From positions 20,088,001-20,152,000 of the forward strand of contig CAIIXF020000001.1 of the NCBI GenBank assembly GCA_903813345.2: a stretch of 64,000 nt of DNA, read 5' to 3'. Made by a program: the position numbers and the translations under genes. The stretch is from Owenia fusiformis (Eukaryota). Positions 3,648 through 46,600 of this stretch are shown here, one piece after another. A model generated the notes under the pieces. It worked only from the letters and a program-made list of their open reading frames with translations, ran no database searches and was not told where the DNA came from. Each line of letters starts with the position of its first letter. Positions within the stretch are counted from its first letter, which is position 1.

Positions 3648-4486
3648 CTACAATCAAATTTTTTATTCTGTCAATCAGTTCATATGGTTAGAATAAGGAA
3701 AGAATGTGATGTAACCACGTGTCTACTTACTAGCTTGTTCTATGTCATCCATCGGACTAGGTTACATCGTGGAACGCAGCCAAACACGAGAATGAAGCCA
3801 GTATTCTGAGGTTATAAAATCTAAATCTAAATAATTTCCCATTTGCAGCCCCTTGGAGATTTCCGGAATTGAACCAAGTATCGAACGTTGCGATCTTTCA
3901 ACTTTAGTTCGTTGTTTTTTCACCACCTTATGTGTACTGTTTTCATTTAGGAGGCGGTCTTATTTGAATGCATCATTACAGGTCTTTATGAATCAATAGA
4001 TCAATAAACAGCTCTAAAAATACAATTTAGCAGTTTCTTTCATTGCGTACTGCGCATGTTAGGCACGAAAACAATTTAGCAGTTTCGTTCGTTGCGTAAT
4101 TGGGCCTTCTATAATCAAAAGCAAATACTCGGAAAACATTTTCCAAAATATTTACTTCCGATTTCCTTGAAGACATGATTGGGTGACACGTCATTGACAC
4201 GTGATTAAGTCACATGATCGATACAGTAACTAGTCACGTGATCAGACATGTGTCACGTGTCAGTCACGTGAGCTTGCAAAATGGACGATCTAAATTTCCA
4301 AAAATTCGGCTAAGATCAAGATAGATATGCTGTTGCCTTCAGCGTCCTGTTCGACTGCGTTCCACGATGTAACCTAGTCCGATGGATGACATAGAACAAG
4401 CCGGTAAGTAGACACGTGGTTACATCACATTCTTTCCTTATTCTAACCATATGAACTGATTGACAGAATAAAAAATTTGATTGTAG
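3648..4486. repeat. About 132-bp inverted duplication bracketing the promoter
   Basis: 3648-3779 is the near-exact reverse complement of 4355-4486. Confidence 0.9.
4045..4290. promoter_or_regulatory. Probable YME1L1 (possibly bidirectional) promoter with an E-box cluster
   Basis: CACGTG four times in 4198-4272 (three as GTCACGTG), GTCACATG near 4209, ETS-like ACTTCCG near 4154, NRF1-like TGCGCATG at 4051, YY1-like CAAAATGG near 4277; locally CpG-rich. Confidence 0.6.
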
Positions 4487-4921
4487 CGTATTCATGTAAA
4501 AAGTTTACTCCCATCCCTCAAAGAACCTTCTTACTCACGTGGTACTAACTCTCCGGGGCATATCGAAACCAAAATGCCCCGCAAAACCGTTAATTTGAAT
4601 TTCAAGTCTACCCTGTCTTGGAAAATCAATGATTGTGAGGCTCACACTATACCGTTTTTCTTCAAACTTGTTCTATTAAAACCTTCACAGAAATACCTTT
4701 CAGTCGAGACATTGCCTTTGTTTACAAAGTCCCTCGTTTTAGCGGCGTTTTGGTCCCCAGATGTGAGAAGATGCAAATCTTCAGAGATTTCAACTAAACG
4801 CCTCGATATATCGCCAGTTCTTTTATTATTCTCCCCTATATTTTGCTCAAGGACTCCCATTACAACCCTCCATCGCTGCATCAACATATTTATAACATTA
4901 TACGCAGCAATATAAAAAAGT

Positions 4922-19608: not shown

Positions 19609-22600
19609 TCAATGTCTGAAGAAGTTGAATAATGAGTTCTTTTTGTTTGATGGCAGGGCCATTACCATTGGTACCTTGTTTTTATGTGTGATGGAAATCT
19701 AAAAACACAAAAATCGTAACTTATACAATACATGGGATTAACATATTTAAAGTTAGTATCAGATCTAGCGAACAACCTTAGAACTGTTTCATTTCTATGT
19801 TTGGCTCATATCATGCCTTGTCATGTCTATTTTCTAAAAATTCCAAAAGTGTGAACTTTATTTATATGTATGGGGAAATTTTAAACATTAATCCCCCCAT
19901 TTTTGCACTTTGAATCTCTCTCTCTCTCTCTTTGCACCAATCTATAAAATATTGTGGATCTTTTGGGAGATATTATATTTGAGATCATAGGGAATACATT
20001 AAGATCAATTGAATATGTTGATTGCAATTTAGCGTGGGATTCAGAGTGAAAATTACGACACTGTTAGGATACTAATGTTATTCAATGATTCAAGTGAAAT
20101 ACAGACTTTCTCAGGCAGAATATTTTCTATATTTCACTTGAATCAGGACTTTTGCTAGATATCTCACGGTTGTCTTATCTGATTAGCATTGCCATTGAAT
20201 ATCGCCAGATATCCCACGACATGTGACCCGGTTTTGACCAATCATACTGTCGCTAGCTAGATAGTGATATAATAATGAACAAATATTTCACTCTATTGAG
20301 GTGAATACCTGTACATCTTTCACAAGTGATATTCCACGAAGCCCGAAGGGCAAGTGGAATATCACCTTGTGAAAGTGCTACAGGTATTCACCGAAAATAG
20401 AGTGAAATATTTGTTTTATTATATCACCGTCTAGCTAAACATCCCTAATATTATTAAGTCATAGGTTAACATTGAAATACATTGAATCTACTCGGTTCGT
20501 CTGCCATTTTGACTTACACTGAACGAAAACAAATTCTTTGAAAATTCCCGGGAGCGTGGGATATCGCTAGATATCTCACGGTTGTCTTATCTGATTAGCA
20601 TTGCCATTGAATATCGCCAGATATCCCACGACATGTGACCCGGTTTTGACCAATCATACTGTCGCTAGCTAGATAGTGATATAATAACTTAAATTATTCT
20701 AAGTTCAATATAAATATCACACCAACACTTCATGTCACACCCTGTATACTTACAGTACATGGAGGCTGCATCCATGGTTCCCCATCTATTTGCATGGGCA
20801 ATCTTTTTCTGGTCCTGAAATGTTACAAAGTACTCCATGTATATGATTCAGAAAATCCTTTTTTGTTTCACTATAAGACACAATATGAATCGTGATTCAT
20901 GAAAATGAATTTATTTCAAGGTTAGAATATTCATATTAACCGCATTGTAAAACTATGCAATGACATGATTTATCAAAAGACTTCTTAAAAAACTACCACC
21001 AAACAAGATTGCTGAATGAATGAACTGCACAACATCTTTATCCTCATGTGTAGCACATGTGTGAATTAAAGAAAATAGATAAATGGTTTTTCGAGAATCG
21101 TGACGACAAAAAATTAGGATTTCAATAAAAATAAAGCCACCTATTTTCAAAGATAAACCTTTTTAGAAAGGCCCTGCCCACTTATATTGAGAATGATGTT
21201 TGTTTACCTGATTACAACTTGTGAACATTGTGCAAGCCTCTTCCCTGAGCTTCTCATTCCTGTCTTCACTTGGGCTGCATGCATTGCACTCTCCAGCCCC
21301 ACAACCTCTATCAACTGGTCACCAATATCTAAAAGAAAACAATCAATTGATCATCAATATCTAAAACAAGCCAATCAACTGGTCACCAATATCTAAAAGA
21401 AAACAAAGCAATCAATTGATCATCGGTATCTAAAACAAGCCAATCAACTGGTCACCAATATCTAAAAGAAAACAAAGCAATCAAGTGATCATCAGTATCT
21501 AAAACAAGCCAATCAACTCGTCATCAATAGCTAAAACAAATCTATCAACTGGTCATCAATATCTAAAACAAACAAATCAACAGGTCATCAACATCTTAAA
21601 CAAATCAATCAACTGGTTAATATATAAAACAAACATATCAACTGGCCATCAATATCTAAAACAAACCAATCAACTGGTCAATGCATAAAACAAACCAACA
21701 TGTATCAGATCTTTGTTTTATTTAGTGCAATAACTCAGATGCGAGTGGGTGGTTACCAGTTTCACCACCAGATGGCTCGTTGGGTCACATTCATTGTTGG
21801 TGTAGTAGTAAGTTCCCCCTAACTTAAATATTCATCTGTTAGTGGTTCAATTTTCAAATCACCCTTATGTATCTAATAGTTATGCAAATCAAAATATGTC
21901 CAGTAATAGAAAATGTTATCTGTCCAATTCAAGAAAATATATTTCACCTTTAGTGATTTTATAACATGGGGTCTATGAGGAATCTCCCCAAACTAGAAGT
22001 CAGATTTTCAAATAAATTAAATTTTCAAAGTTGATAAACAATTTTCGAAACCATATTTCAAGATGTATATTACTTTTACATGTACTCAAATATGTCATCA
22101 CTGTGACTGGATTTTGAATATTTAATGACATAAATCAAAATTATTGCTACTCGCAGTTAGTCTATTATCAATCATAAAATAAATAACAAAAAATATTTTC
22201 AAACTTGGAAAAATACATAATGTAATGAGGCCACTTTATTATATCAATCTGTAAGTAAAAACCTTTTTGTCCCTCTCAGTAAATAACCTACTTATTTCAA
22301 ATACATACCTTGTACTGCCATACTGAGATCAACTGATGACATGCTACTTGTGGAATATTCACGATCCTTGTCCTTTTTGGGTGATTTCTTATTCCTTTTT
22401 TTCTGGCTTGGGTTATCTCCCCAGAGATCTGTCCCACCATATATGCTAGGTATGTTTAGCAAGGCTATACCCTCTAATGTTGGACCATTGGCTAGATCTA
22501 GTGAATAGCCATCACACTGAAAAACAGAACACATAAAGAGTTTCCAAGTACTGAATGTGTATGATACTCTAATGACTGGATATGTACTTGATCTTGGGGT

Positions 22601-25600
22601 ATTAAGGTAGGAGTAGCATGTCTAGCATCCTTGAACATCTTACACATAGCAGGGCCTGGGGGGGGGGCAAAATCTCTGCAAAATCTCTCAAAATCATGCA
22701 GTTTTTCACCATTCTGAGCACTTTTCAAGTGGTTTTGGGCCAAAGTTGTCAAATAGTAAACCCCCCTGGAATTCTTTGAAAAGTGAACCCCTTGGTAAAA
22801 AGCTAGCTGCAGGCCTGCATACCAGCTTCCATACTTATGCTGACAAAATGGTTCAAAATCATCTCACTAGACCCACCTTAAGAATGTTAAGGAAGCAAGC
22901 CGTAGATTTAGTATTGTTCCTCTAATAATCTGTCAGGTCATTACGGTAATGCACCCCACATCAATTATTTCATTGTTTTAATTAAAAGGGTAACAAATTT
23001 AAGAAAGGAAATAAGAGTAACTTTCTAAAAATAAATTACAAAATCAAGTTTAATTTCTAGAAAGTCCAGATTTTTTTAATTTCAATGATAATCCTTTGAT
23101 CTGGCAATACTTTTGATTCCCATTATTTTCCATTTTTTCATTTTGAATTACTGTACAATGAACTACTTCCTTATATGCATATGCTAAATACGTTTGGGAA
23201 TATGCACTTACCATGATATCAATAGACTCGTGGATCTTTTTACAGGTTGCAGAAAATGTCTCTGAAGTTCCAAACTCAAAGTACCATAACTTATTCTTCA
23301 TTCTGGAAGTATATAGGATCATACATTCTACAATGTATGTAACATTGTACAATTATGCACTCAGCCATTCTTCATTATGCACTCATACATTCTTTAATAT
23401 GCACTCGGACATTCTTCATTATGCACTCATACATTCTTTAACATGCACTCGTACATTCTGAAATGTATCATCATACATTCTACAATATGTTGCCATATTT
23501 TTACAGTATGCACTCATAGTTATCAGCTATTTGAAGCGCATTTCCTCCCACTGAAAGACAGCATATGCTATGATGGGAAAATATGATGGTTTACACACTT
23601 CAGTTCATCTTACAAAGACATATTAATATAAAATCACTTTTTGGATAATATTAATATCTATTGTTCAACTAATTTTCATCATCTTCACATAGCAAGTGAC
23701 ACATAACATACCAAATAACTATTTTTCAAATTGCTGATAAACTATGTCTCCTTATTCAGTTAAAAGAATGCAGGAAAATAAAATAGAGCCTGAACAACAA
23801 AGAAAATCCAGTTGTTTCTAAATTGCAGATTTTCTTGTCATTATTGTTTTAAAAATAATTTTATGTGATGATATTCCCCCATGGCATCATTCATTGGTGA
23901 TTCCCCTTTCTGTTCATTGCTAAAAATACTACATTTTTCTGTATAGTGTTATATTTAACTCATTTATCATTGATGCATGTAGAAATATCATTGAGGACCA
24001 CAGTAATAGTAGTACAATATTATATATGGGAGATTTAGTAGGCAATTAATTCTTAGTGACACATGACATGTAATACCATTGTCAACAAGTAGTATTCATG
24101 ACAATTTGATGTGTTGTTCAGACTCTATATATTAAAATATACGCCAACGCACTTACACATAAAGATTTCACTGGATATTATAGACGAATAGTACAGGAGA
24201 TCAACTTGATTCCCTCCATTATTACAGAATGAGGTTCACCGTAAATATATTCATTTTTTTAGTAAAGACTGTTATATTTATAGCAGTTATTCTTCAGGTG
24301 ATGCCACTTAGACCTTTATCACTCCACAGGTATATAGTAATCCTGAGATCTTTATGTGAGTGTTGGTATAAACAATTTATTTTAATCCACAAGTAAATAG
24401 ATAGAATGCGCAGAAAGAGACTTCGCTGTCACAAACATGGCACGTCGCAGCGCCAGCAGGCTAGTTGGTTAATGAAATGTTTGGAGGTTAATGATGCTTT
24501 TCAGTTTTGAGATATCATTACAAGAGCAATGTTGGGCCCAAAACAACAACTCAATTTATTATGCACAATGGGATCATAATACCTTGTCATGGAAAGCTTT
24601 GGGTGGACAGGATGTTTATACATATAATAATAGGGTAGGGATCATGCTAGTGCTACATGCTATTTCCATCACCAAAATATATAGGTGCAATAAAATTGTG
24701 CATGTAGAAATAACTAAATACTAGGTGGAATTAATAAATATTGTGCATTGTACAATGTCAGTGTGGGACAAATAATCTAGTGCCATATCAGTAAGAAAAA
24801 TTAGTATTAAGGAAAACCATAAAATCTGGCACAGTCATGTGAGTAAAATTCAAATATCTAAACCTAATATCTAACTGGTGACTTGTGTGCAGTTATAACA
24901 CCTACAGTATGCTGTGTAGGATTTATGTTTTTGTAGTTTTAGTAATATCCAGTACCAAAATAAAGAGAATACATAAGTACATTTGGGGGAAATAAGTAAC
25001 AGGTACAAAATCAGAAGCTATGGTTGGTTGACTATAACAACAAGCAGAAGATACCAATCATGCAATCACATAACATGTCAACAAATATTGGCACAATTAC
25101 AAAATTTCACAAAAAAAACGTCACATCAATGAACATCTTTAAAACAATAAAAGCAAACACAGAGGATTAATCCCATTTGACATGTGATTAAAGTAGCGTG
25201 AAACTGGGGTACATCCTCTATGTACAATTTACAACTTGAAACATAGCTTTAAGGAAGGCAGGGCAGAATGACCAATTTACCTAATGAGATGTACTAATGT
25301 CATATGTGCAGGTCAAAATCATTTCACACTGCCCACCTTAATCTTCCCAAAATTAACCCAAAACACAACACAGTCAACCAACCATCGTGTCCATTGTCCT
25401 CCCAAGCTTTTACAATGACAAGGTTTTACAAGAACCCCCTACTCTACCTGCTATTGAATTTCTCGGGATGTTTTTCCCGCATCATATGAAACCTATGTGC
25501 GATGGACGCGTCCTGCAGAATAGAACACAATATCATAAATACAAAGAAATAAAAAACCCAGGGTGGACAGGCATTTTGTAAACATTTACATTGTAACACT

Positions 25601-28600
25601 GGATGGGAATAAGCATAGGTTTGCCACCTTAGAGAGGAATTTACAAAAGCAATTCTGTAACAGTTCTGCAAAGGTAGGATTTGAATGCACCGTGGAGCTG
25701 TTATTGCAAGGATAGCCTACAAAAAGAGCATGCACACAATTTTAAAGCTTTTTACAGGGCAAAATACAGGGTGTTTTAAAAATATAATATGCATGTTTGA
25801 TCTCATATTTTTAGAACGCTGCAAATTGGTAAAGGGTACGCATGCAAAGAGAAATTCTCCAATCTTAGTTGGAGAAATTCACATGTAAAAGAAGAAACAC
25901 AAATATTCCATCACCGACCATGATTGTAAAACATGTTGTCATCATAGCTTTGCTTTTAAGCCAAGTAATGATTATGTCTGCTATTTAAGACATTTACCAA
26001 AACAAGTATATTTTGATTTCAGTTACAATTTTCCAAACACAATTTTTACCCTTCCAAATGTAATTCTTAAAAAACATATTGATGTCAAACTGAAAGGTTA
26101 TTGAACATTTAAAATGGAGAAATCTGTGAATTACTAATCACCATCATGATGATTATCTGGAGAAGATTGTTTATTCTCATGGGGTTCCTGAAGCCCACAT
26201 TTATTCTTAGCAGTTAGGCCAATATACAGAGTGGGCCAATAAAAATTGGAATGTGGATCCAATGAGGATAAAAAAGTTATGACCTGTGATTTTATTGTAT
26301 ATGTAATTTCTCAATACATGTTTATTTACGAATGAAATTCATTCTCCAAAGTCTTTGTAATGTTCTCTGCTCCATATAATGTACAAGTAACACTCTCCTG
26401 GGGTGGAGATAAGAAAGCTGCACATGCATACAAGACACCAGCAACATAACGTCTCAGCATTCGAGAGCAACTAAGACAAAACATAGAATAAGGGGTGGAA
26501 TGAAAGCTTGACATAAATACTGGAGACCAAAATGCCTGTTCCTGGGTAAACACAAACCTGCTGTCAAATTTATGTGGATATTTTTCTCGCATCAAATGAA
26601 ATTTGTGGGCTATTGACGCATCCTGGAATAGACTTTGTATATTAGTAGAAATTAAGGTTAAAAACATGATGAATTTCTAATCCAACAAACTTTAACAATG
26701 ATTATATAACTGTTAATGATTTGGACTACATACTGTATTGTGAACATCCTCTCCATGTATCTTGACCCAACCCAAAAATAAACATATTGTGAAAAAATGA
26801 ACACCCTTTTCAAAAACATTTGGGAAATATTCACATTCAACTGAACTAAAATGAAAGTAACAGCTTACCACCCCAATAGAGAAATAATTATTGATAATGT
26901 TACAAGGAACTGGATCCCCTTGTTCTACAGTATCTGGCGTACTAAACTCTATCTGCCAGCGATCCAGCTGGACTTGGTTACCACTCTTTATTCTGTGTAA
27001 ATATTTGTTCAGATTTTCTCCCTCATAACCTGGAAAAACACAATTGTTTTCAAAAAAGACATTTACATACTTAATTTTTCTTTTTTACTCACATTTTACT
27101 TGATTACATATAGTGCATGTGGTATATCGCATATTAAATATTTTCAAAGGATGCAATGTTTGAAGGATACTTGAACAACATTTTTTAAATTGCCCTCTAT
27201 TATGTAAATGTACAAATTGCATGCTGGCTTTGACTGTTAACAGTATATCAATAACTATTGTTTAAAATGACACATGCTATACATCAAAGAAAAGTGAGCA
27301 CTGTTTAAAATCTAGATGCACATGTGGCAAATGTTTGAGCCGGATAAAATCCCCATGTTCAATAAAATGTCACACTTACAATACAATACAATAAATGGTG
27401 AAATGAATGTTATGTGGCTGTAAATATTTACCTCCTCCCCAGTTGAGACATCGTGCCAGGTCATTACCCGTCCCAAGAGGTAGAACTGCCACTGGCGGAC
27501 GATTTACAAAGGTCACCTTATCTACAACATAATATAAATACTATTTATTCATGTTCATTGAAGAGCATGAAAATGAATCCCTCCATTCTTGACAGAAACA
27601 GAATAGGTAATAATGATATAGAGCTGATAATAGAAATGTATACTATTATTACTTATGCACTGCATTGTTCTTTATACTATTGATTCCTTTCAAAGCATGT
27701 TTCACTGGCTTTTGGTTTGATCATATTCAACTGCGTAGTTTCTTGTGTTAAACAATATCAAGAAGCAGCAGGGGATATCTAACTGCATGCCTATTAATCC
27801 CCCGCCTACTTAAATTACCCCCTTTCTACTCACCCATGGCTTCAAGTAACCACCCGACTGTTCCATCTCCTCCGCAAACAAGAATTCGGAAATTTGGCAC
27901 GTCTTTGAAAAACTGCAACCTAAAAATGTTACACTGTGGATGCAGTTTGTGTTATATTTTCATATTTTCAATGTAATATAAAGCATGAGTCTGCATAGCT
28001 TATAACTTCATACAATAAGTTATACAATGTAGTAATACTTGTAAATTCAGTAATGACTGTCTATAAAGTGCACACCTCCCTATAAAGTGCAAACCTCCAG
28101 ACAGACCTGCTCATGTTAAAAACTGACCCCTATAACATTAGTGCCAATAAATTCTGAACAAAGTGTTCTCACTTCAAGAAATTCAATTTAAAAGAACCAG
28201 GATATTGTGATTTTTGAGATATGCTTTTGTCCATGTGTGAGTATCAATATCTATGCATACACAGTTGAGTTCATAAATTTACAGTGTACATACACTTGGA
28301 ACAATGTTTTTAATGTTGGCAGTCAATGTACTGTATATTTAAATGTGTTAATTCGGAATAAAGAAAGGAGAAAATGAAGGTTAAACATACGCTGGTTGAG
28401 GTCCTCCATTTTTGATCAGATCATAAACCTGCCTTGGGTTGAGTAAATACTGAAACTTTCTTAATATCCTGAAATAAAATGCAATCAAACTTGAACACAA
28501 TACGAATGTGTATTTTGTAACATAGTTGCTGCATAAAAAGTGGGCAAAAAGGTAGGTAGATGATCATTTGACATTTTCAAGACATACAAGTTAACCATTT

Positions 28601-31600
28601 ACATACAGCAAAAACTAACCATTATTAGCATATAATTTATTCACAATTGACTATTTTAATTGTGGGAAACTCGAAAGTGAGGGATAACGTACCTGGCACC
28701 TTGTTTCCCTCCACTCTTTGGGTTGATAAAGACGAGAAGAGGTGAGGTATCATTCATCGGGGTGATCTGAAATGAACTCTGGCCCTGTCAGGTGACGCAG
28801 AGGGAAGAAAGACAAAGAATAGCGGGTTAGTTACAAAGCAGTAAAGCACAGTCAGGTCAAAGGGCAAATCAAGGGTAAGAGGGGGGATACCCCAGAATCC
28901 ATAGATGACCCTCTTTCCATATAAAGATGAACTTTTAGGGGTTCATATACTAATTCTGAGGTATTCCCACCTCTTAATAAGGGTAATCTTATGTATGTCA
29001 TTTTCAAATATTAGAAAATCAACACAATCATTCAATGTACTTTTGTTATAAATAACAAAAAAAGTTGACTTTTAATATAAAAAATTTCATCCATTAAGAT
29101 ATGGTTACTTTTTACAAAAGGCAGAATTTCATGACAGAGATTCGTCACTTAATTATGATGTCAAAGACAGACCACTATTGTAACAGATTATATTATATTC
29201 TGATACTACTCTAGCATTGGTTAAATATTTGAGATCAAATTGTCATGTAGACCAATCATTGGATGTTAGAAGTGCTTTGATTAACCTGTCACGTGAAACA
29301 AACATGAAGATTCACGATAGAAACACTAAAAACCATACTCCGAGGAGTGCATTAAAACATTAGACAAAATTGATCAGAAAACATTTTAATAGGGAGAACA
29401 TGTATATGTTGGTCTCCATGACAATTATGCTTCTACATACTGGTCTTATAATAGTTATATATTAATATGTCTATCCCAACAACTTTACATTAGCACAGAT
29501 AAGCTTATTAATCTGACTGTATGAAATCCTGAAATTCAGTGCTTTGGAAAAACACTATCACAAATCGTATTTAAATGCGCATCTAAACTTATCTGTATTA
29601 ACCATTGTCTCCACCAAACTTATAACTATGAAAGCTAAAGTATCTATTTGTATTCCCATGTATTTCTTGTTATAATGTGAAATAGGCAGAATTGTGTATT
29701 AATTTTTTATTATTTCAAATAGGCATTGAGAAATTTATTTGGTGTTAGAAATCGAAAAGACAGAAAATGTGTATAGCTTCTTATTATCTCAATTTGACAC
29801 TGACAAATTTCAAGGAAAGAATTTGAAATCTCAGTGTAAAAAACTAAACAGTTAATCAAAAGTGCTTGAAATATTATCATCCCATAACCTAGGAAAAGCT
29901 CTTTAATAACACAGAATCAAAGGATTGTCTCTCACAAGCTTCTGTTAAATATAAGAACAAGAAACATTTAAATTTGAGTTAACAAATTCTTGAAAAGTTG
30001 AAAATGCCAAGAATACATTTTAACATGAAAAGCATATAGGTAAAGGTAAAATTGCTAGAACTTGCAAATATGCATCCTTATGGGAAACTGTAACTTTTGA
30101 AACCTTATATAAGTAAGAAAAATAGCCTGCACCTCATGCCCAAAGAAAGCACTAGATGCATATGCAATATTTAAAAATCTTATGTAATGTATGTGTCATG
30201 TAACTGATAGCTTTGTTTTTTTACAAATTTTAGAAAACCATTCATATGTAGAGCTGTAAAATTAATAACTAAAAATAAATAAATGTGACACAAAATCCCA
30301 AGATTTAATTACCTGCAGGCCGCCACTTCCAGAATTTTCACCCTCGTTACTTTTTTTACTAGAATTCATTGTGCTCTTACGTTCCTAAAAATAAAAATGA
30401 GGAATGATTTAAAAAATAGTCTGCACAACAATTGTATGAATATTAAAATTGTAAATGTAATATTTCTTGCGGTGAAACTTCTATTTGAACATGACTGTAT
30501 TCACGCCTTCTATAAACTGTAAACAAAGTCAACATTTCACCCAGGGTATATTCGGGAACAAAACCCCTGGTAATACTTGTAATGAGTGACGTTATAATGG
30601 AGGGCCATAGTAATGGCGGACCATAATGAATATCCGAAAAATGTTGGTGAGTTGTCATGTTCGAATCATAATATAGACCTCAGAGCAGGTGTAATATCGT
30701 CGAATACACCCCTTGGGCTAGGCACAAAAGTTTTTGAACCCCTCACTCCCTTCGGTCGTTTGGGGTACAGAAAACGTTTGTGCCTAGCTGCGGGGTGTAT
30801 TCGACAATATTACCCCTGCTCTTTGGTCTATATTTCTTAATTCATCTACTTGGTGCTTATGATCCATATGAGCTTATGTTTGTGTCTTTCCTGAAGTTGA
30901 CTATACCTGAGAGTGAAAAGACACTTGTTGATACAAATAACTATTATGTATTATTGTGGTACAGATTTCCGATATTTCCCCAACTATTGGTAAGAGTATT
31001 TTATAGATCCTACTGCCACCAGTAGAATCAGTTGACCTTATTGTGAAAAACTAGGGGGAGGGAGTATACTTACTAGGACAGCTGGACATATCGCATTGGG
31101 GGGAAGGATGTGATCTCTAAATTCACCAAAGTCACATTCAGGTTTTACTTGTGATGCACATTTATTGTGGAGCTGAAAAAAAGAAGTCAATAGAACACAA
31201 TTATATACATGTACATTGTCATTGTATACAAATCTGACTAGTATATGCCTTTTATTATCCCATGACATCAGTATTACAGAAAATAGAAATAGAAGCAGTG
31301 TTTTCAATTTTACTGGTTTTAAGGCGCTCACATAAATAATACCAGACTTCTCCTGTGTAGTACACAAACTTACATTTAGATGGCACCAGCGGCAATGAAG
31401 ACCAGTCACGCCATTGTAGGTTTTTATTGATTTTCTACATTTGTCACACTTGCCAGGGCTGTTCCCCTCAACCCAGTGATGCTGCATGTTCTGTAAGAAA
31501 ACATTATGTATAAATTCATGAATTTAAGAAATGTTAAAACATGCCAAATGGAAACCTTTTCACTTTTTAATATTCTTTATTTATGACTTCTTCAATATCT

Positions 31601-34600
31601 TTACAATAAAGCAGACATAATCATGGTCTCATGGTTATGCTTTAAATTCTGTTTGAGGACATTTTACATTTTTTCTTGTTGATCAGATGTATCATTACAT
31701 AGACATAGTATTCAATGGTAAGATTTGGAGTGTTTTTCTAACTATATGGTATAACACTATATAGTATAATAAAATATATAACATTATAATAATATAATAT
31801 AGTATAGTATAGTACAAGAAATAATGTTCCTTAATAAAGGACTTACATTTAAACCTTTCTTTGACTTTACATATGTGGTTATACAACAAGCAGGGGCTCT
31901 GTGGACACACCTCTCGTGTACTGTATATTTGCAAACTGAAAATAACACAATTTAGTAAACATACATACAGACGGATGGATGGATGCGCCTATGCCGACAA
32001 TAAGGCCCCACACTATGTGGTGGGGACATAACAAAAGGAGTAAGGCGTCTCTGATAAATCAGCATGATCTTCTCATCTATATGAATATTTTCAAGATCGA
32101 CAAAACCTCAGAAGAACTTATTTGTTTGACTTACATATGCAACTAAGGCCTTGTTTTCCTAGTCCCACTAGCATGTTAAGGCAGAGATTGCAGTAGGCAG
32201 GTTTGTTATAGTGTTTGAGACGCCAAGAGTGGGTCCCGTCATCTTTCACATTCTGAAGTATAGTGATTACTTAATAGTCTGGTTTATTATACTTATAGGT
32301 TAGAAGTTTAAGATATTGAAGTGTTTTACTTTAATTACAAAGAATATATATATAAGAAATGCTTCAAATAAAACAAATGAGTAAAATACACAATCTATCT
32401 TAATTTTATCAAATTTAACTTCATCACCTGGTAAGTTATTGTGAATGGTTACAAAAGTGTAACAATGTATTACAAACACCAAAAGCCAAATGTTATTTAC
32501 TGCCATTCATTATGAGACTGGTGGCTAAAACAAGGTCATTTCTTGGGTAAGGACAAATAGCTGCCCATGCCTATTGATAGTACATGTATAAGTTACATAT
32601 TAAAATATTTTAGAATTATTCAGGATGGGAATTACAGATGTTAAAGTTGTACATACTGTGTCTAGACCCAGTAGAACCAGGAGAGGTATTGTTGTAAGAC
32701 CTCCACGCTTCCATTCCTCCAGGGAAACAGTTCCATCTTCATCATAATCTATCTCACGCATCATGTCTTGTAATATCTGTAATAAGCTTATATGTTTCAA
32801 TAATGCCTTACACAATATTAGACAGCATTACATTCTTAGCAAAGCAATTATACTGGAGTCAGTCAAATTGATTCACATAATCCAACTAATAAACCGACAC
32901 TAGGCCAAACTTAAGGTTTGTTTACTCACAGGTTTAAGCTCGGAGACATCCCAACCAAGGTACTCTGCGACAGTCATCATTTGCTGCACAATACAATCCA
33001 GCTCCTAAACCATAATGCAACGCTCCTAATTAATATGGCATGACAAATAACATGCTATGACAATGATTATTACAGAGATAATCAATTAAAATCCAAGACT
33101 GAAGTGGTATAAACCTCTTCATTATTATATAAAGAATCGAGAGGATGTTTATCTAAGAAACACCTATTTTACGCATTTGAAACCTCTGAAATGTCCAAAT
33201 TGATGACAGGCATCAAAAACTGCATTATACAAGTATAAACTGGTTCTTAACATTAAAATTACAGTAGACTACAAATCAGGGAAGGCATCAAAAGACCAAT
33301 GTCTGATAGGAAAATAAATAAATCTAGTTTTGAGTTGGACCCCCCTCCCCAGCAAAACTAAATACAATGAAAGTTGATCGCGGACTTTTCACATGTTAAA
33401 CGACTCAATTTGGACTTTAATTGGGGCAGTACTATAACTTATTTATAATTCTTAAAACATGTGCCAACAACAACAGGCACAATATTCCATTGTTGCATGC
33501 ATCTTGGTGAAGAAGGCATCTGGTAAAGTCTTTATTTTTAAACCATTCCAAGGAATTTCCAGTCGAAATTGCAAAAAATTTAAATGTTGAAATTTGTCGG
33601 ATAGCAAACTGAAATAGCTTTGAACCCCTCCCCTCAAACTAGATTTATTTAGTTTTCTATCAGACATTGATCTTTTGATGCCTCCCCTTATAAAGGTACT
33701 TCTAATGGTACTTCTAGAAATATACAGAAATTATTCAAAAATAGAAATTCAACAAAAATAAAAACATTTTTCTTCACAACTATTCAAGTATATTGAGCCC
33801 ATATACCTTTCAAAGAGAACTATACCAATTCCAGAATGCTTTATCTACATCAATAATCTGCAAAAGGCTAATAAGCCCATTTAAAGCAGATATATTACAT
33901 TTGAGAATCAGATATTAAGCATGATGGGATTGGTTTGGGACCATTGCTACTTACACTACCCTCAAGTAGTAGATTGTCATCTGTATCATACAATCTAAAC
34001 ATGACTGAAAAACACATCAAAGAGAGGACAGTAAAATAAAGAGACAACCCAAAGGACAACATAAAATGAAAAATAAAATGAAGAAGAAACAAGTTGAATA
34101 CAAGAAAACAATACTTTGCAGCCCTCTCCACCCCACCAACTGAGTGACCAATCCAATACAGTGCATGTGCTGGACATGTACAGTAGAACCTGTATATCCG
34201 AACACCTTTCTAATCCAAACATCTCTCAACGTGAACACTTTATCTCATCTCCCATTGACTTACATATTGAGACACTTTGATATGTGAACACCTGCAAATG
34301 TGAACTTTTTTGGCCAGTCACAATGGTGTTCGGATTAGACAGGTTTTACTGTAATCACTGTAATAATTGGTGATTTAAACAGGTGTCATCAGTGGATGTA
34401 CATGTATTAGATACTTGTGCTGTTGAATTTAAAGGACTGCATTGCATCATGGGTACTACTGCACTATGGGATGGTTCTATCCTCCATTGAAAGGTGTGTT
34501 GCCTACTCTACAGAGAAAATAGTACGTAGGTTATAGTCATAAGCAAGTATCCATAACACAATACAAAGCCCCTTAGCAATTTCCTCGAATCAAGAAATAA

Positions 34601-37600
34601 CTAAAACAAGATCTAGCAAGACTCATTGTGACAGGAAATACGAATCATCAAAAGTAAAATTGAACATTTCGGACAAAATTGATTTTGGAAAGATTTATGG
34701 AGTCAAAGTGTGTGCTATGAATCACTAAAAATGGCTATAACCTTACATCTTCAGTCTCTTATTATACATCTATTGTCAGTTTTATCACAATTTCTGAGGT
34801 TGTTTAATCATACAAATGACACACCATCAGAAACACATAAAATGTTTCAATAAGAAAACTAAGATAAGTGACTAAATGCATGCAATATATAGAGTTCTGG
34901 ATCTCACATAACTACATACTATGGAGAAGTACTACAAAATAAAATGTATCTACCCACGCCATGCAATACTGAAAATGCTAGATACAAGTTATCTCAATTA
35001 ACAATAAGGTTGTTCCATTCATTTTGCTGTATTTAAAATGCATGGCTAGAGTATTTTAGTGAAAGGGGCAATATAATCATTGCCCTACCCTAACAAATAC
35101 ATGGAGATGGTACAAGGTCAGAGCAAGGAAAACGTTCCTGATATATCGAAATTAACCACTATTATTCAGAAAGACAGTGTTTCACTCAGTGTTTTTACTT
35201 GGGTAAAATTTTAGAGCTGTGGTTGTGAAAATGGATATGTTTATATACAAAATAGAATCTGTATTTAAACTTTATTTATGAGGGTAGTAACAAAAGCAAC
35301 ACCTACAAAAGACAACATCTAGGTATCTTTATTTGCATATTCATTGTTTATTTGGTTATCGATGCATTGCATTTAATGACTAATATACAAATAGAGAACA
35401 GTCAGAATGAAACTAGTTGTCACAATGTTACCATAGTGATAGCATTTGTCACCATGGTTACTTACATCTGTATCTAGAATACCGTTGCCATCGGCATCAT
35501 ATAATCTGAACATGACTACAATAGAAATGGAATACACAAAAGTTTTAACTCTCTTCAAATGCGTAAATAGTAAATCAAATGTTATATTGACTAAAATCTT
35601 ATGACTTTAATTGGTCAGTAATTCACACACACTTGTAAGCTGCACCTAGACTAAAATACATATACTCGTACATCCCAAACAATAATGATTTGGGGTCCCG
35701 GCATGTTGTAACGCTATAATTGATGATTCGAGTCCTTTCAATAATCTTCTATTGCATCCATGTTATCCTGGAATTGATAAGTTTGGGTCCAAAATGACCT
35801 GAAGTTGAAGACCTGCATATTGGTAATGAAAGCCCTTTCAGGAAAATGAGGAATGCATACATGTAAAGCATACAAAGTAATATAAATATGGTAACGAGAG
35901 TATAAAAAATCTTATCAAAACTATTCCAAATCTATGCACAAACATTGAATCAGTGATCTCCCCAACATTAACTTGAGAATTTTGAAAATAGGCTTGCACC
36001 CACTTGAAAACAAAAACATTTTCCCTTTTGCAAATGAGAAAATCATAAAAAATCTGTATACTTTGACCAATTTAGTATTAAACTGTATGAGAATTTTACA
36101 CTGATAAAACCCGTTGAGCACACTCCATCTAGGTTTTATATCAATTCAGACTTAATTCACATTTGACCACAAAAGATTAAATGTACTTTTACTTCTTAAT
36201 ATTCCTATATACAACATCCATTACTACTTACATTCTAATTTATCCTCTGGTCTCCCAGCCTCCAATAACGAGAGGTAACATACTAAATCCTTTAGATAGA
36301 TACTGCCATTTTTTATGTCTAAGCTATTCCGACGTTTTATATCATTGGTATTCAGTAGAGAAGACTTGGACTGGCGGATCCACGGATCACTGCTATCTAT
36401 AACACAGAAAATAAAATGAGTAAAAAACAAATCGATTTTACATGAGATGAAATTTTATTATCGATCAGTCAATATCAATGAAACATATACATGAGTTAGC
36501 AATAACAACATGACATATGAATAAAGTTATATATTTGATAAATGTTTATTTAAAAAATAACAATTTTTCACAATTATTTCTGCCAAAACATATAATTTAC
36601 AAATGTCCAACACAGACAATACAAAAACAGAAGCATATAATACATCATATCATACCAGCATACAACACGCTACACTTGCACCATACAGAACAAATTTGAT
36701 TCCAAATTGGAAATATTACGCATGTACCAGTACTGATAAATATATGTGCAGTAAAACGTGGATTAGTTAAAGGGCTTATAGCTGTTATTTTAATCCTAAA
36801 TAACCCAAAAATATTTTTAATTCATAATGATGTGTAACTTACACAATCGATAGACTTGGGATTAAACTAATTCTTCTTTGTAATTACTGAAGCTTGAAAA
36901 AAATCATTCATGTAGAAAGTGAATTAATTGTTCTTAATAACTTTAAAGGTGCAAGCAGTCCAATGTAGAAAGTGAATTAATTGTTCTTAATAACTTAAAA
37001 GGTGCGAGCAGTCCAATGTAGGAAGTGGATTAATTGTTCTTAACTTAAGGTGCAAGCAGTCCAATCTTGATCTAGTCATACTGGTGACTTGGTGAGGATT
37101 TTTCTCAAGCCTTGATATTTTCAAAAACTTTATGTTCAAGTCTATTGATTCTACAAGTATAAGTTACATATAATTCTGAATTCGAAATATTTCACAGTTA
37201 TACCATGGTCACATTTGCTCTGGTACTGGCACCCGACCGATGAGTATTTTGTTCAAAATTACATTCAGTTTTGAACAAAATACTCATCGACCTGGCTCCA
37301 GTGTTGAAGATAGGGGCAAATGTGACCACAGCATTATTTAGGCTGAAAGTTACATCTCTTATAGCCATTTAATAGCTGTTTGCAATTGCAGTTTCTATGA
37401 GATTGTTTCCCTGGGTATGAACCAGTCAATCTCACGGTCCTACCTACAATTTTCACTTGGATCATATGTGTATGTGTTGAATACACGTTTTACTGCAATA
37501 TATGACAGCCCCATGTGGCAGTACATTATATGTATTCTGAAATTCCTCATTTATAAGTATAAGCAATATGCAACTACAGTACATTAGTCATATACTACTC

Positions 37601-40600
37601 ACAAAACAACATTTCCATAGAATACATGTATAACAAAAAATATAAAAAAATATGTAGATATGTTTTATTTCCAATAGTTTTGTAATAGGTTAAATTTATT
37701 TCTTGACAAGAAACATGATATTTGATAAATAAATTACCTAAAAATTGAAAAGATATTTAAACAGATTCATAAGAAAGACCCTTCTAAAAGCAAGTGCATT
37801 GTTCTTATAGCTCAATTAAAAACTCCCCAGAATAGCATTTAAGAAATCTATAACTCTTGTTATACAGAGTGAGCTTCAGAGGTGATTTCTTGATATCATA
37901 GTCCAAAATGCCAAAAATGAAAGATACCATATGGCCTTTTTTTAAGTACTCAAAAAACAACCTGAAGTGATGACACTGAAGAAATACACAATAAGGGTTA
38001 TCTACATGGTACAATTATAGCATCAACAGCCACACATTCGGCACATACATCTGCACATCATAAAGTAAAGCATCTTGGATCTAAAATGCCTCCTCTGGTG
38101 CCACCTTTCAATACAGAGGAGGTTCTATCCTACAAATCTCTGATAGACCAACTGATCATATCAACCAATCATAATAGAGGCTAAATGTCTTTAACTGATG
38201 CACAAATATTTGATCTCTATATATCATGACCAAATCTAATAGAAAGCAACAAAACATTAAATTGTCATACAAAAAAATAGAAGTACGATTTCAATTTTTG
38301 GGTTACATGCCCAGACTGAAAAGTTTGAATAGACATTTAGCCTCTGTATGATATAAATGTTAGACATTGCATGGACAACAATGTTGGACAAGATGTCCAC
38401 TTACTAAGCTTAGTCTTTGTTAGCCCTAACTCTGACACATCCACTAAAATATGAATAATATGTACACACTATAAAACCCATACAATTAGAATATAACAAT
38501 AAAAATAGCACAAAAATGAAAATTAATTAAGAACATGTATTTAATGTTGCTTATAGAGGCATCAAGTCAAATATATCATAAAAGTAAAAACCAGGAATTA
38601 TTTTTCACAATTTTCTTCATGTACAGCTATTAACTCCTTTTCATAGAAATAAATCCAAAAATTTTGCTGCTGTAGTTGCCTTCAAGCTGCATTCCTTTAT
38701 GACAATAATCAATTTTTATTAAAATATATAACAAGCAATATTGTGTTGTTGATTACCATAACATACTCTAAGTTAATCTTTACATGGAGACTTCTTATCA
38801 TATCAAAAGATGTTCCACAGAGTAAAATAAAATATCAAAATATCAATTAATGTTATACATTTACCTCTGTTCCTACTACACAGGCGCCATCTTTCAATTC
38901 TTTTTATTATTTTTCCTGACTCAATCATTTACGATAAGGCTATTTCATTGAACATAATTTTTTTTATCTAAAGAAGCCAATGAGAAGAAACAAGGCACCT
39001 TTGGTGGTGACATAATGAGTAAAAAATGAAAAGGGAGTAGATAGATTTCAACTTGCATTGAAACTCAGGGTTAAGTGAAATAGCCCTTTTAAAGTAAAAC
39101 CTGTATATATTGAAAAAAATTCCCAAGAAAAAAATGTTCAGTGTTGGTAGGTGTACAGTACAGAGAGATATATACAGAAGTCAGTTGAGTATGTGTGGAG
39201 GAAGGGTCTCCACTAGAACCAGGTGTTCACTAAGACAGGTTTTACTGTAATAGAAATTTAAAGCAGGTAGAATAAGCAAAATCTGAGAAAGCAATGAATA
39301 AGATATGGACATGTAGTTGAAAAACTGTAATCTAACAAGTAAAAATAAAATAGAAAAACTTAAAATGATCAAGAAGTATAATATTCAAATAGTTCACTAT
39401 GCAACAGTCTTACCTCAAGACTGCCATCAAAAATGCATACATCTCCGTGCACTGTATTAAAAACATTAAGAACATTACCAATGTTCAGAGTTGCCGCCAA
39501 AGCATTATAGAATTAGTCAATATTTGAAAGATCAAATTTATAAAGTACTAACCTGGTCAACTGCTTGTGGAAATAGAAGAGATGAATGTGAACAAAGTAG
39601 ACAAGATATAACATAAAAATGATGCAGTGATCTCCCCAGCATTAAAGCAAGTGGGTGCAGCACCCATCTGAAATTTGAAAACAGGCTTGCACCCACCTGA
39701 AAATCCATTTGCACCCACTTGAAAATGAGAAAAATCCTTAAAATTGGCATATTTTGACCAATTTTGATCTGAGTCGTGAAAATGAGAATTTTGCACCCAC
39801 TTGAGAAAAAATTCTGTGAAGAACACTGAGATGATATCGCAAACACCACAAGTATCTGATTGGTGAAAAATATGCCTTAAAACATATTTCAATTTGAAAA
39901 ATGTGCCACATACTGACAATTCATGAAAATTGTGTCATGACACTTTCTCAATTTGAAATATGGTGTCGAGTCAAATACTGTCCATAAAATTGGAATTTTG
40001 ATATCATGTATACATGTACAATATATAAGGAGTGTACTTTAGAGGCAGAATTATGCAAAGCCAGCAAACCACTGAATATGGGAGAACAAATACAGATCCA
40101 AAACAGAGATATCATACTTCTTCCTTATATGGATGGAAATGAGACTATATTCAATGCACTTAATTGACCATGATCAAGTCCTATGTATTTGTATCCCAAA
40201 TTGAGTCAATTGAATGATTGGAAATATTAAAACCATTTGATAGCCAATACTCAATTGAGTCATTGAACTAAAGTATTAAGAATATCAAAGATCTGAAGAA
40301 GTATATCAAAAAAGACAATTTCAGTTTCAAATGAAAGGTATGAGGAGAAAATGGAGAAAAAACATGCCATGATTGGTTTGATGAAAAAATGCTTTAACCT
40401 GCAAGATAACAAGAATGAAACCCATATGTTCAATATCAATGAGGAGCAAGGTTTGAAAGCAGCAGACAAGGCACAAAAGCTTCAAACAACCAATCTTGGA
40501 AAATAATCAAAAGAAAGAACAGCATATAGTTATTGATCATCACCTATTACATGTAGTTATAAAACCTGAAATATTTACAATTTTAACTGCACATAAAAGT

Positions 40601-43600
40601 CAATCATGCATGTGTTTTATAACAATAAAAACCAAACCATGCATGTGCCCCGTAACAAAGACCCAACCATGCAGGTGTCCTGTAATAAAAAAAATGCATG
40701 CAAAACCATGCACATGTAGGACAATGAGCTGCACCAAGAGGAAGAGACAGTACAATGAGCAGTACAATGAGCGATACCAACGTGTGACAAGGAAACATAT
40801 ATAGCACACAAGCATGTGACTGACTGGGGTGTATGAAGAAGAAGCTTACCATTGTGAATGCTATGGACCGAGTGTTGGGATTTTTTAGATGATGAACGGC
40901 TGTGGTTGGAGGGATCCACAATGGGGGTACCATCAGGCAAGGTGCCCCCTGTTGAAGCCACTGCAACTGAAGGTGGAAGTGTGTAAAGCAGAAGTAGAGC
41001 TTTGTAGCTTGTATAGAGGAAAGCAGGTGCTGTTAGAAAATGTCACACGCCAGATTATACATATAATACAGGGCAACTCTCATCTCAATAAACCAATCGA
41101 GACGTTTATACACAAGGCATGAACATGCAAAATGTCACCACCTACCATTTGTTACAATCACCGAACTTTGAACACCGACCACTAATTGCTAAACACCAAC
41201 TGCTGAACACCGCTCACAAAAAAGGTGGAGACCATAACAATATGTCAACACTTGTGGTGGTGACATAATAATGTGTATCATCCCCAATTTGCATATCTTA
41301 ACAGTAAGCGATATAATAGTCTATGATGATTTCTCCCTACGTCCCTAAGTTAATGTAATAAATCTAATTCAATTTCATCATTTTGATTAATAGTAGGTGT
41401 AAAGTGAGGATGGTATATGAGATGAGAATATTCCTCAATAGAGCGCAACAATACAATCTACATCATGTCCTGCATAAGATAGTTCAAGTCCAACACAGCC
41501 CTCAGTATAAACCTCAAGATTCTCAAAATAACCCAGGTGTATATATATTGTTCCAACACATTCTGGGGGATCCTAAAGAGTCGTGCATTCCTTCCATTAA
41601 CTTCTTTCTGCTTTCAAACCGCAGGAATATAATAGAACTACAAAAATGTCTAAATAACATAGATCTGTCCAAAAATACTGCTTTTCACCAAAATGCTTTT
41701 GGATAAATTTCAGGATTTGGAGACAAAGGATTAGGACATTATAATTTCTTCAAATATAAAAGTACATCCTTATGTTAAATAAAAAAGCTCTAACAAAGAT
41801 TGATAATGTATAATGTACAAGTAGGAATCAACGAACTTGCACATGATTTTATTTTGTGCATTACTCAATCAAAAATAGAATCAATGTCACAAACCATATT
41901 ATCAAAATGAAACTTTCTCTTAAAATATAAAATCAAACAAATTGAATCTGGACTTTTTCTTAGATTTTATTTTAAATATGAGAATCTTGAGTTACATACT
42001 GTAAACAGGCAGCTATGAAAGGATCGTCTACACATTGAGAAGTGCTGAGTAAAGATTTGAGGCCTATTACATTACAAAATGCTGGTCTCAATCAAAGTAA
42101 CTAAAATGCATCCTGCTAAATCATGCATATATAGCTTTCTTTCAATTTTGAATGAACTGCATAATTTCTTATGTGATGATGCTTATTAAAAATTGTATTT
42201 TAGTGATAAAATCTAAAGTATAGGTCTCGGGATATATGTCATAAATATTCAGTTTTTACCTAAAAACTGCTCGTACTTATCTGTCACCAGGCCAACATTT
42301 CCCGGAAAGGGTTAAGTCATTTTCATCAGCAGATTGCTTTATGTTGTGTTTAACATGGTTTAAAATAATGTAATTTAGCATTGATTGAGTCCAGCATCAA
42401 GTGTTACTTAATAAAATGAGCAAAGATATGTCTACATTTGTATAGATTGTTCCAGTCTTGCATCACCCCCTTACCCCTCTCAATTCACAAATAGGAGCAG
42501 CCAATTTTGAAAGCATATTTTTCATTCTGTGGTTGAACAGTACTTTGATCCTCATAGATGTCATTTTTATTTGATGATTAAAGTTTTTATTTGATGATTA
42601 AAGGTTTTGTTGAAATAGAGTTTTGGAATTTTATGTCAATATCTAATAAAAGAAATCTGTGTTCAAATCTTTAATTCAAGTTTTCAAATATGCATTTTAT
42701 TGTCTGGAACATAAACACAGATGTGACCTCTAGCCCTTTTATGAATCTAAATTCATGAAATATTTACATGTTTTCTACATGATTTCCTCAAATAGATACC
42801 CTCTATTATGAGTCTTCATGAATTGAATTTTAAAAAATGTAAGAGAGAGCTTAAAAGAAGACTAAATCTAAAACTAACTATTTTAAGTTCTTACTGAAGT
42901 GAACATGTAGGACTCTCATGAAACTTAATTTTTGATCATCTACTCAACTGCAGAACCTCAAAACTCAAGTTCTTTCCTTCTTCTTAAGGAAAGCAAACCA
43001 AGGAGCACTGCATTTGGTTGATGTATTTAAATTCATATTCAGTGTAACAACTGTATTAAAGGTAAACTGGTCATTGCACCCTTAACTTGCAATTCAATCC
43101 ACAATAATTGATTGTTTTAGCTGTGTTGCAATTTTAGGATGCAATGATCCGTTTAACAGGCATATCTATTATAGATTAGTTAAGGTTATTAGTGTTAATT
43201 TAAATGCCTTATATGGTCTTATTATCAGGTTCACCTCAGTGGTTTTAAGTCCCTTACCTGCACGGCCGCGTTTAGCAGCCTCTCCACCACTACTATCATG
43301 GCGAGCATGACCGGCACGGCCAAGCTTCTCTGTCAATCCTTGAATTTTTTCTACAAGGCGTGGTTTACTTTCCTGCTTGTCAGAGATCTCCTGTAGCTGA
43401 GCCTGTATAATAGGAGCACTAACAGTTTGTGAGGCCATAGCGGCCACATCACGCACATTATAACTGCCTTCCTTACCCAGAGTCAAAGATTTCTGAGGGG
43501 GGCCAGATGGTCGTTTCAGGAAAGATAAAAATAGATGTTCGCAGAGTTCTTTTGGGATGTCATCCACCTCAAGGTATGTTTCCATGAACTGTTTGAAGCC

Positions 43601-46600
43601 TTCATAGTCAATAGGCTGCAATAGAGAGAGTATTGGTTAGCTCATTGCAAGGGTAGTCTATTATATAACTGTTGTCTCATCATATACAAGTGCATAGAAA
43701 TCATATTGTCCTGTGATTCTTTAAAAGGGTGTATAACATTCATATTTGAGCACTTGTATTTAATACTGACATCAGACAGATACAAAGTTAGTGAAATCAT
43801 ATGAAAATGTCTACTATTTTCGCTTTAACTCAGACATGAGGTTTAGTATAATTTGCATGCAAGAAGGTCAAAGAAACAATAAAATACTAAGTTGGATTAC
43901 ATCAATGAGTTCAATTGAATTGAATATTTAAATAATGAACTGTCTAGTAACAAATAAGAATGAAATTAAAAATACTAATGATTCTATGCAAGCATATTAT
44001 GGATATTAGCCAAGCATGGACAAATTCAAGTTATTACACTTCATAAAATAAAATAATGCACTACTTCAAAGAAAAATAATTTTTGCAATTATATGTAACA
44101 CAACTTAATAACCAAATGTTGCATCTACAAAGTTCAATCTATGCAAAATATGTATCTTTATTTGTCATGGTGTAATGCAGATGGGGAGCCAAATGACAAA
44201 TGTTTTTCGTAATTGCAATCGAAAAAAGTGTAAAAATGTGTCGAAACAGTTGTTGGAAAACCAAGTGAGACAAATGTTATATGAAAACAATGTATAAATT
44301 TTTTTTTTATTAAATTATATGAAAGCTTCTTCCTTGTATGGGTCAATTGTGGCTATAGTACTACGGCCAAGGCGATTTGTGTCCAAAACACCTAGATTCA
44401 ATTTGACTTTAGATTCTTGTAGGGGACCCCAAGGCATGTAAAAAAATGTTTGTGAACCCTTGCAAAGCAGGCTCAAAAGTGCTGAGTCAGCAAATTTTAT
44501 CATTTTCGAGTCAGAATTTGACCATATGCTTGAAACTATTTAATATCTCATTTGAGGATGATGCAATTGTAATGAAACATTGTTAATATATCAATAAGGC
44601 ATGTATGAAGAATTCCTGAAAGTTTGGGTCTTATTCAACAAAATTTGGTAGAGATATGGGATAATTTGTCCCTAAAAGTACATAATTTCTCCTCAAAATG
44701 TCTTAATCAGTCGATAGTTAATCAGTCATTTAAAAAACAGTAAGGGCCTATGGTGTATAAAACCTGATTAAAAACTTCACTGATGATGTGAGCAAATATT
44801 TCTTGAATAAGTTTCAATAAAAAGTGCATGCATCTATTTTTTCTGATTTTTCTCTTTACCTTCCCCTAAAAATTCAAGAAAGGGGGCGTGGCACCTTACA
44901 CTTCAGTTGTTGAACTTTTTGCTAGGGTCAAATAGAAAATATGTATCATTATAGCAAAAAGTGTTATTCTAAATAAATCTTAACACTATATGTGACATCA
45001 TAATATGCTAAACATATTCATTATCTATCATTTTATTGAAACTTATTCAAGAAATATTTGCTAACATCATCAGTGAAGTTTTAAATCAGGTTTTATACAC
45101 CATATGCCCTTACTGTTTTTTAAACGACCGATTAACTATCGACTGATTAAGAAATTTTGAAGAGAAATTATGTACTTTTAGGGACAAATTATCCCATATC
45201 TCGACCATATTTTGTTGGTTAAGACCCAAACTTTCAGGAATTCTTCACACATGCCTTATTGATATAGTGACAATGTTTCATTATAATTGCAACATCCTGA
45301 AATGAGGTATTAAATAGTTTCAAGCATATAGTCAAATTCCGACTCAAAAATAATAAAATTTGCTGACTCAGCACTTTTGAGCCTGCTTTGCAAGGGTTCA
45401 CAAACTTTTTTTACATGCCTTGGGGTCCCCTACAAGAATCTAAAGTCAAATTGAATCTAGGTGTTTTGGACACAAATCGCCTTGGCCGTAGTACTACTAT
45501 GCATCAAACTGATATTGAAATTCAAAGATGAGGAATGAAGGATTCTAGAAAAAATAAGTCTCATATTGACATGTTTCAACCCATAAGAATCAAAATGAAA
45601 CCGTGCAACCATCTCTTTTAATTTTCATTTGATGGTATATAAAGATTTTAATAAGCAAAACAATATAAGTTGTGAGTCTTGTGAGAATGCCATCTCTGTG
45701 TTAAGTATTTATAATAGTGATATCCATGTGGTGTTTTGTTAAGTGACCATGTGGTGCGAGTGGTGCAATTCTAAAAGCAACACACAGGGTGAGGGTGGGC
45801 CAGAAAAAATAGAGTAAAAATAAACCCTATCACATTCAAATATTATACGAAAAATATATGTTTATTTTCTCATAGATTTTTAGTAATCATGATATTTATA
45901 AAACAGAAAGGAATTAAAATGAGATTGGATGGAGATAAGTACTGCAATTAGGGATGCCTATTATAGTGCTATCTGAACTGATTAAAGCATGTTTAAGTTC
46001 TCAAAACCTCAATACTCTACAAGCAGAGTGCCAGAATATTAAAAAAAGTTGATAGCTTTCCGCCAACCTGTCTTAAGGTAGGCCAAGGAGGATGCATTTT
46101 GAACTGATTGTGAATAAAGTCAGTATATAAGCCTATGAGGCCAAACATACCAAGCATTCTACTTGGTCTACCTTACATAAATGTGGTTATGTATAAGCCA
46201 GCTAGGATTGTGATGATGAGCTATATTTACGCCTTAACCAGTTCAGATAATCTGCACTAAATGACATTTGTTAAATGTTGACAATTACATTTTTGAAGTA
46301 AGTTCAAGTAAATTACACAGGAATTTATATTTGAATGTGGCAGGTATGTTATATTGTGAGAATTGCCACCACAGTGGGTCTTACTCTCTCCAAGACCTCC
46401 AAATCCTGAGACTGGAAAGGGAATAGGCCTCAGGATTAATTCATGCAAGACATAGGGATGTATAATGCACAATACATACAGACAATGGTTGGTTACTCAT
46501 TTCATGAGATCATTGTTACCATAGAAACAGCAACAAGATGTCATGACTTTACAAGCTTCAATAAAATTAACATGGTTTCATTAGAAAGTATGACATTGTA

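Follow-up and report, generated by a model that had tools for sequence, protein, structure and literature searches.

The 64,000-nucleotide (nt) stretch of Owenia fusiformis DNA analysed here (GenBank assembly GCA_903813345.2, contig CAIIXF020000001.1, positions 20,088,001 to 20,152,000 of the forward strand), designated the window and used for all coordinates below, contains the gene for a type I diacylglycerol kinase (DGK) with two neighbouring 65-nt exons, A and B, which encode alternative versions of the same segment of the protein. These exons are a real and old duplication kept under selection, and they are probably a mutually exclusive pair, a novel example of a splicing device which is itself well known. 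We consider it likely that B is the default exon, that A serves as its alternative, and that the exchange re-tunes the rim of the substrate pocket.

The host gene was delimited with CAH1773550.1 (P0001), a DGK of O. fusiformis with 839 amino acids, which shows a 100% match to the exon upstream of A. Residues 21-839 correspond to a coding span at 19609..48926 on the minus strand, the protein itself mapping across 48926-19612; no exon encoding residues 1-20 was found when P0001 was mapped on the window. A Pfam scan of P0001 revealed a DAG_kinase_N domain at the N-terminus, EF-hands, two C1 domains, DAGK_cat and DAGK_acc, which identifies the protein as a type I DGK, and its best match in the PDB is 6IIE, the EF-hand domain of DGKalpha (E 1e-36). 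The gene model behind P0001 includes exon B and omits exon A.

Exon A, the derived copy, is located at 26558..26622 and exon B, the ancestral-type default copy, at 25448..25512, both on the minus strand. Each is bounded by AG and GT, starts in phase 0 and ends in phase 2, the borders being ttccag before GATGCG and gtttgt after AGCAG for A, and ctgcag before GACGCG and gtagag after AGCAG for B. The two copies are identical at 49 of 65 bases and encode the same residue in 16 of 21 full codons, a likeness that is not due to chance (blastn E 5e-11; BLOSUM score 98, whereas no intron of the other loci scores above 22). Thirteen codons differ, eight of them synonymously and five not, and the proportions of synonymous and non-synonymous differences according to Nei and Gojobori (pS 0.92, pN 0.12; Fisher p 6e-7) indicate, as pS is nearly saturated and pN low, that the duplication is old and that the protein sequence was held by selection. 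The acceptor flanks of A and B retain residual similarity that marks the duplication. That two alleles or paralogues were merged in tandem by the assembly is hardly credible, since the likeness is confined to the exon and this short acceptor flank, and since the nucleotide divergence of 25% is far above the 0.5-3% found between the RNA runs described below and the window.

The constitutive exon upstream of the pair (26869..27029, minus strand, 161 nt) ends with NNYFSIGV and the donor GGGGTG followed by gt, and the one downstream (23212..23302, minus strand, 91 nt) completes R650 and continues with MKNKLWY. They are separated from the pair by an intron of 246 nt upstream of A (26623..26868, minus strand), in which a CTAAT resembling a branch point lies 23 nt ahead of the A acceptor, and by an intron of 2145 nt after B; the GT-AG intron between A and B (25513..26557, minus strand) comprises 1045 nt. 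The reading frame is kept with either exon alone, whereas a stop codon is predicted 37 nt short of the end of B if both are included, and 9 nt into the next exon if both are omitted. The encoded segment corresponds to residues 629-650 of P0001, within the Pfam domain DAGK_acc (620-803), and in an alignment of 73 sequences its first residue, D629, which is common to A and B, is invariant in all 72 homologues. A sequence-only reading of the window had described paralogous 65-nt exons with matching phases and mostly synonymous divergence, a frame shift upon double inclusion, a conserved aspartate at the start of both and a location in the catalytic accessory domain, and in these respects it is confirmed.

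RNA data were evaluated for positions 22300-37132 in four of 16 listed runs, two of them raw RNA reads (X14 and X16, of which about 6% and 12%, respectively, were examined) and two of them contigs taken to be RNA by guess (X9 and X13); 15 of 49 splice joints were listed. Exon B is used in all four runs. Reads leading from the upstream exon directly into B, with A skipped, number nine in X14 and eight in X16, and contigs of X9 and X13 show this joint as well; for the step from B into the downstream exon there are 15 and eight reads and again contigs of both X9 and X13. In X9, a single contig of 2359 nt crosses B without branching. When applied to this run, the depth arithmetic used below came very close to the values of four of the five bins and gave 3.38 versus 3.23 for the fifth.

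For exon A, the evidence is indirect and comes from depth. The region was chosen such that A had its own depth bin, and this bin showed values of 0 in X14, 0.33 in X16, 0 in X9 and 2.67 in X13. In X13, the contig of the upstream exon (depth 30) halts at the end of the exon and B is represented by a short branch with a depth of 12.5 between sides of 29 and 25. After subtraction of the listed pieces, 1322 letter-units remain unexplained at A, 500 at the upstream exon, 159 and 244 at the downstream exon and 2 at B. These residuals are fitted by one A branch with a depth of about 20 and flanks in both neighbouring exons (sum of squared errors (SSE) 0.002), whereas a branch without flanks gives an SSE of 1.37. 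Sequence of the B type cannot map on A at 90% likeness, since it reaches at most 81% over 31 nt. We regard it as very likely that A is spliced into mRNA at all. Exclusive use of one or the other exon, as proposed from the letters, is supported: B is joined to both flanks in all four runs with A skipped, and we infer an A branch from the X13 depth; among the listed joints, those from 26869 to the pair and from the pair to 23302 are of B. No joint between A and B is among those listed, and B shows no excess of depth in X13.

Several observations weigh against this interpretation. None of the listed joints involves A; its depth is 0 in X9 and likewise in X14, where about 18 exon-equivalents of B would limit A to at most roughly 15% as a rough bound; and the 163 sense-strand letters that X16 has in the bin of A could represent two or three exon reads or intronic signal. 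The fit for X13 is inexact, with flanks of 25 and 21 nt instead of the expected 28 and 25 nt, and the flow through the neighbouring pieces gives a depth of 12-17.5 rather than 20 for A, corresponding to a share of roughly 49-62%, contig depth being a poor measure of expression. Exon A might accordingly be a silent or nearly silent leftover, with the X13 signal stemming from unspliced RNA, DNA or a quirk of assembly, and such a view would also fit its absence from the public gene model and its donor GTTTGT, which alone among the 21 donors of the gene lacks a purine at +3. We nevertheless find it unlikely: a dead exon would not be expected to combine near-saturated synonymous change with an undamaged frame and splice sites, the intron bin neighbouring A in X13 has a depth of 0 while both flanking exon ends show an excess, and single-copy loci, among them L009 and L047, likewise have a GTTT donor at the end of the exon.

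In X13, which is labelled organism B, 31 of 994 listed exon letters deviate from the window, compared to five of 993 in X9, so that a diverged relative seems to have retained A and to express it. At the same time, X13 is RNA by guess, and the difference in A and B use between the runs could reflect populations instead of tissues, a further point against our interpretation. In its strict form, in which populations or species differ in the exon that dominates (A in organism B, B in organism A) and the choice is not regulated within an animal, this explanation agrees with the fact that the sole strong A signal comes from a run whose exons are about 3% different; it is highly unlikely, as X13 contains both branches and X16, which belongs to organism A, has its sense-strand letters in the A bin.

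At the protein level, the exchange of B for A replaces R635, M638, H643, E645 and N648 by K635, L638, Y643, H645 and D648. In the homologues, K635 occurs in 23 of 72 sequences, L638 in 26 and Y643 in one, whereas H645 and D648 occur in none. All other invariant columns of the segment are kept in A (D629, A630, I632, F636, H637, R640, E641, P644, F647, S649 and R650). Since the aspartate, which we take to correspond to a residue with a catalytic role, is identical in both versions, the choice of exon alters its neighbourhood and not the residue itself. The five substitutions in A would then re-tune the substrate pocket at its rim, with the aspartate retained. The matching segment of human DGKalpha, EKYPEKFNSR, carries K543, Y544 and K547, which have been assigned to a cluster of probe-labelled sites and a predicted pocket that extends over both DAGKc and DAGKa in the vicinity of reported ATP-binding sites (PMC10246554). 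Exon A has a tyrosine (Y643) at the position of Y544. Its substitutions would thus sit on and beside residues bordering the predicted pocket, with a glutamate lost and an aspartate gained three residues apart, and they may affect substrate handling. If A is used, natural selection has provided a five-residue variant of a segment bordering the probe-labelled pocket of human DGKalpha, a drug target, and the role of this segment would become directly testable. Searches of the PDB yielded no structure of a eukaryotic DGK catalytic domain, and sequence matches there cover only the DAGKc half; those in the Atlas are at the level of the family only.

The change E645H strikes a column that is invariant in all 72 homologues, and A could therefore be impaired, which again counts against a mere re-tuning. 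In a corresponding alternative, A is spliced mutually exclusively and yields a low-activity or dead DGK acting as an off-switch or as a scaffold that binds diacylglycerol (DAG). Position 645 is E or Q in each of the 98 metagenome loci described below and position 648 is N or S, so that D648 is found in none of them, which favours this alternative. Given the conservation of all remaining invariant columns in A, the occurrence of K635, L638 and Y643 in homologues and the strong purifying selection on both exons, we consider a loss of activity decidedly improbable and re-tuning the better description.

Regarding the mechanism, the following sequence of events is the likeliest. An old tandem duplication left the gene with two intact exons of 65 nt, each encoding the same 22-residue stretch of DAGK_acc. 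B is spliced by default, and A would be swapped in upon activation in some tissues or stages. Competition between splice sites may enforce exclusivity, and nonsense-mediated decay may remove the products of double inclusion and of omission of both exons. The acceptor of A has a lower pyrimidine content than that of B (0.56 vs 0.72), and the donors match a simple consensus at seven (A) and six (B) of nine positions. A steric lock is ruled out by the A-B intron, which is too long, and U2/U12 incompatibility by GT-AG introns throughout. RNA duplexes were also considered: the best intronic ones reach -23 to -28 kcal/mol, with one, three, one and none of 12 crude shuffles as strong, and a marginal duplex pairs sequence near 26739 with 25739 (-24.8 kcal/mol; 1/12 and 0/12 crude shuffles as strong); none around A and B was clearly stronger than the crude shuffles.

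In a lax search for duplicated exons among all segments of P0001, only one other pair besides A/B was found. It consists of the 50-nt exons E1 (35466..35515, minus strand), which encodes a canonical loop with G224 and D227, and E2 (33955..34004, minus strand), which encodes a degenerate loop with L224 and E227, the segment in question being the first EF-hand loop. All 72 homologues have G224 and D227, and L224 and E227 each occur in none. Junctions of E2 are listed in all four runs and those of E1 are absent from the listed joints; the E1 bin shows depths of 0, 0.31, 0 and 0 in X14, X16, X9 and X13, respectively, and in X13 an unbranched contig of 1480 nt runs through E2. The common isoform, with the degenerate E2 (G224L, D227E), may therefore have altered calcium sensing at EF-hand 1. 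The sequence-only reading had combined this pair with A/B into at least 2x2 isoforms in which regulation and catalysis vary independently. The pair does exist, but the claim of 2x2 isoforms is not supported: only E2 junctions are listed, so that there is support for at most E2+A and E2+B, short reads and contigs being unable to phase E1/E2 with A/B. Both A and B seem to be combined with E2, evidence against a fixed coupling of E1 with A and of E2 with B.

A bolder view, which we regard as possible but doubtful, is that of a regulated switch by which a single gene yields two biochemically different DGKs, with A at about 0% in some samples and about half in another. If it were true, the pocket rim of A, in which Y643, H645 and D648 appear and the invariant glutamate is replaced, would occur in no other DGK examined, and it would do so on a backbone with a degenerate EF-hand 1. 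The pair would then be a natural five-residue experiment on substrate or ATP handling in a DGK catalytic domain for which the PDB searches gave no eukaryotic structure.

The distribution of the pair was surveyed in metagenome contigs and in annotated proteins. A degenerate motif scan of the contigs identified 98 loci with the exon, all of them with a single copy. Sixty-seven loci show the full interval between the flanking exons, and a second copy was found in none of these (best intron score 22 versus 98 for A/B), of which only 17 retain both introns and many are near-duplicates with small introns. The upstream intron is absent in 36 of the 67 loci, the downstream one in nine and both in five, and some of these loci may be transcripts. 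Introns around the exon are often lost (e.g., in L004, L008, L002 and L012), and only lineages retaining both could evolve such a cassette. Isoform sets at the species level, 25 in number and with 149 exon-bearing proteins, were available for molluscs, a brachiopod, nemerteans, a hemichordate and echinoderms, large clusters being represented by a part of their members; each set contains one peptide at the A/B segment and one at the EF-hand exon. Oyster isoforms of the same length (P0159/P0160 and others) were considered as exon swaps and discarded, as they do not differ at either position. A search for proteins containing the frame of exon A together with its intron flank, confined to longer proteins, gave no candidate, which is weak evidence. 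Annelids are thinly covered by single models of Capitella, Ridgeia and Lamellibrachia, and annotation can miss such exons, as the lack of A in P0001 shows. From these comparisons, the pair is likely to be lineage-restricted. As to conservation of the pair in relatives, A is probably expressed in the diverged run X13; no second copy was found in the 67 loci and 25 isoform sets, which is a further argument against our interpretation.

Some other features of the window may be mentioned. Four further exons of the host gene lie beyond the downstream exon that starts at 23302, and a 22-nt tandem repeat with at least five copies (23330-23483) ends about 30 nt upstream of the acceptor of that exon. 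Long inverted-repeat pairs at about 3540-4520 and 44300-45530, detected by six-frame self comparison, are probably derived from transposons. Two paralogous 93-nt exons, both bounded by AG and GT, are located 227 nt apart on the plus strand (9801-9893 and 10121-10213) in a gene which presumably encodes an FtsH/YME1L-like protease; they are identical at 22 of 30 residues and 65 of 93 bases, with 15 synonymous and eight non-synonymous codon changes, and cover part of the AAA domain just after Walker A, the Pfam AAA matches being below the cut-off. As their length is a multiple of three, the frame would be kept if both were included.

Among known systems, the vertebrate DGKalpha, beta and gamma share the domain order of the Owenia DGK, and the peptide of exon B is identical to that of bird DGKB (P0059-P0062). 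Vertebrates vary this segment between paralogous genes, whereas Owenia varies it between exons of one gene; A is not a copy of the alpha version, since DGKalpha retains E and N in EKYPEKFNSR. The literature searched on DGK, Drosophila Dgk and Owenia splicing, exclusive of supplements in PDF format, gave no account of duplicated exons in the catalytic domain of a DGK, nor did that on type I DGK splice variants, including PMC12673472, report such an event. DGK genes are represented by no row in the human catalogue of tandem-duplicated exon substitutions (PMC8373072), in which a positive control was found, and by no match in the small supplement of PMC9741552, for which there was no positive control. 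As the splicing device is well known and the pair appears to be confined to a single lineage, its general importance is limited.

The pair shares its either-or outcome with steric locks, U2/U12 systems and systems of the Dscam1 type. Control by docking and selector sites, as in Dscam1, and U2/U12 locks both lead to either-or splicing. Steric locks have been described as a further device for exclusivity (PMC9177970). A/B differs from steric locks by its 1045-nt spacer and from U2/U12 systems by GT-AG introns throughout, and no RNA duplex clearly exceeded shuffles. Closer parallels are the mutually exclusive exons that arose by tandem duplication in PKM, KHK, OGDH (4a/4b) and ACTN1 (PMC8373072), and the variable residues of such exons have been found to cluster near functional sites (PMC7954323). 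Whereas the Owenia pair differs from this set in being apparently lineage-restricted and in that we infer the use of A, it has in common with it adjacent paralogous exons of equal length, one of which probably enters each mRNA, a presumably preserved fold and variation near a functional site.

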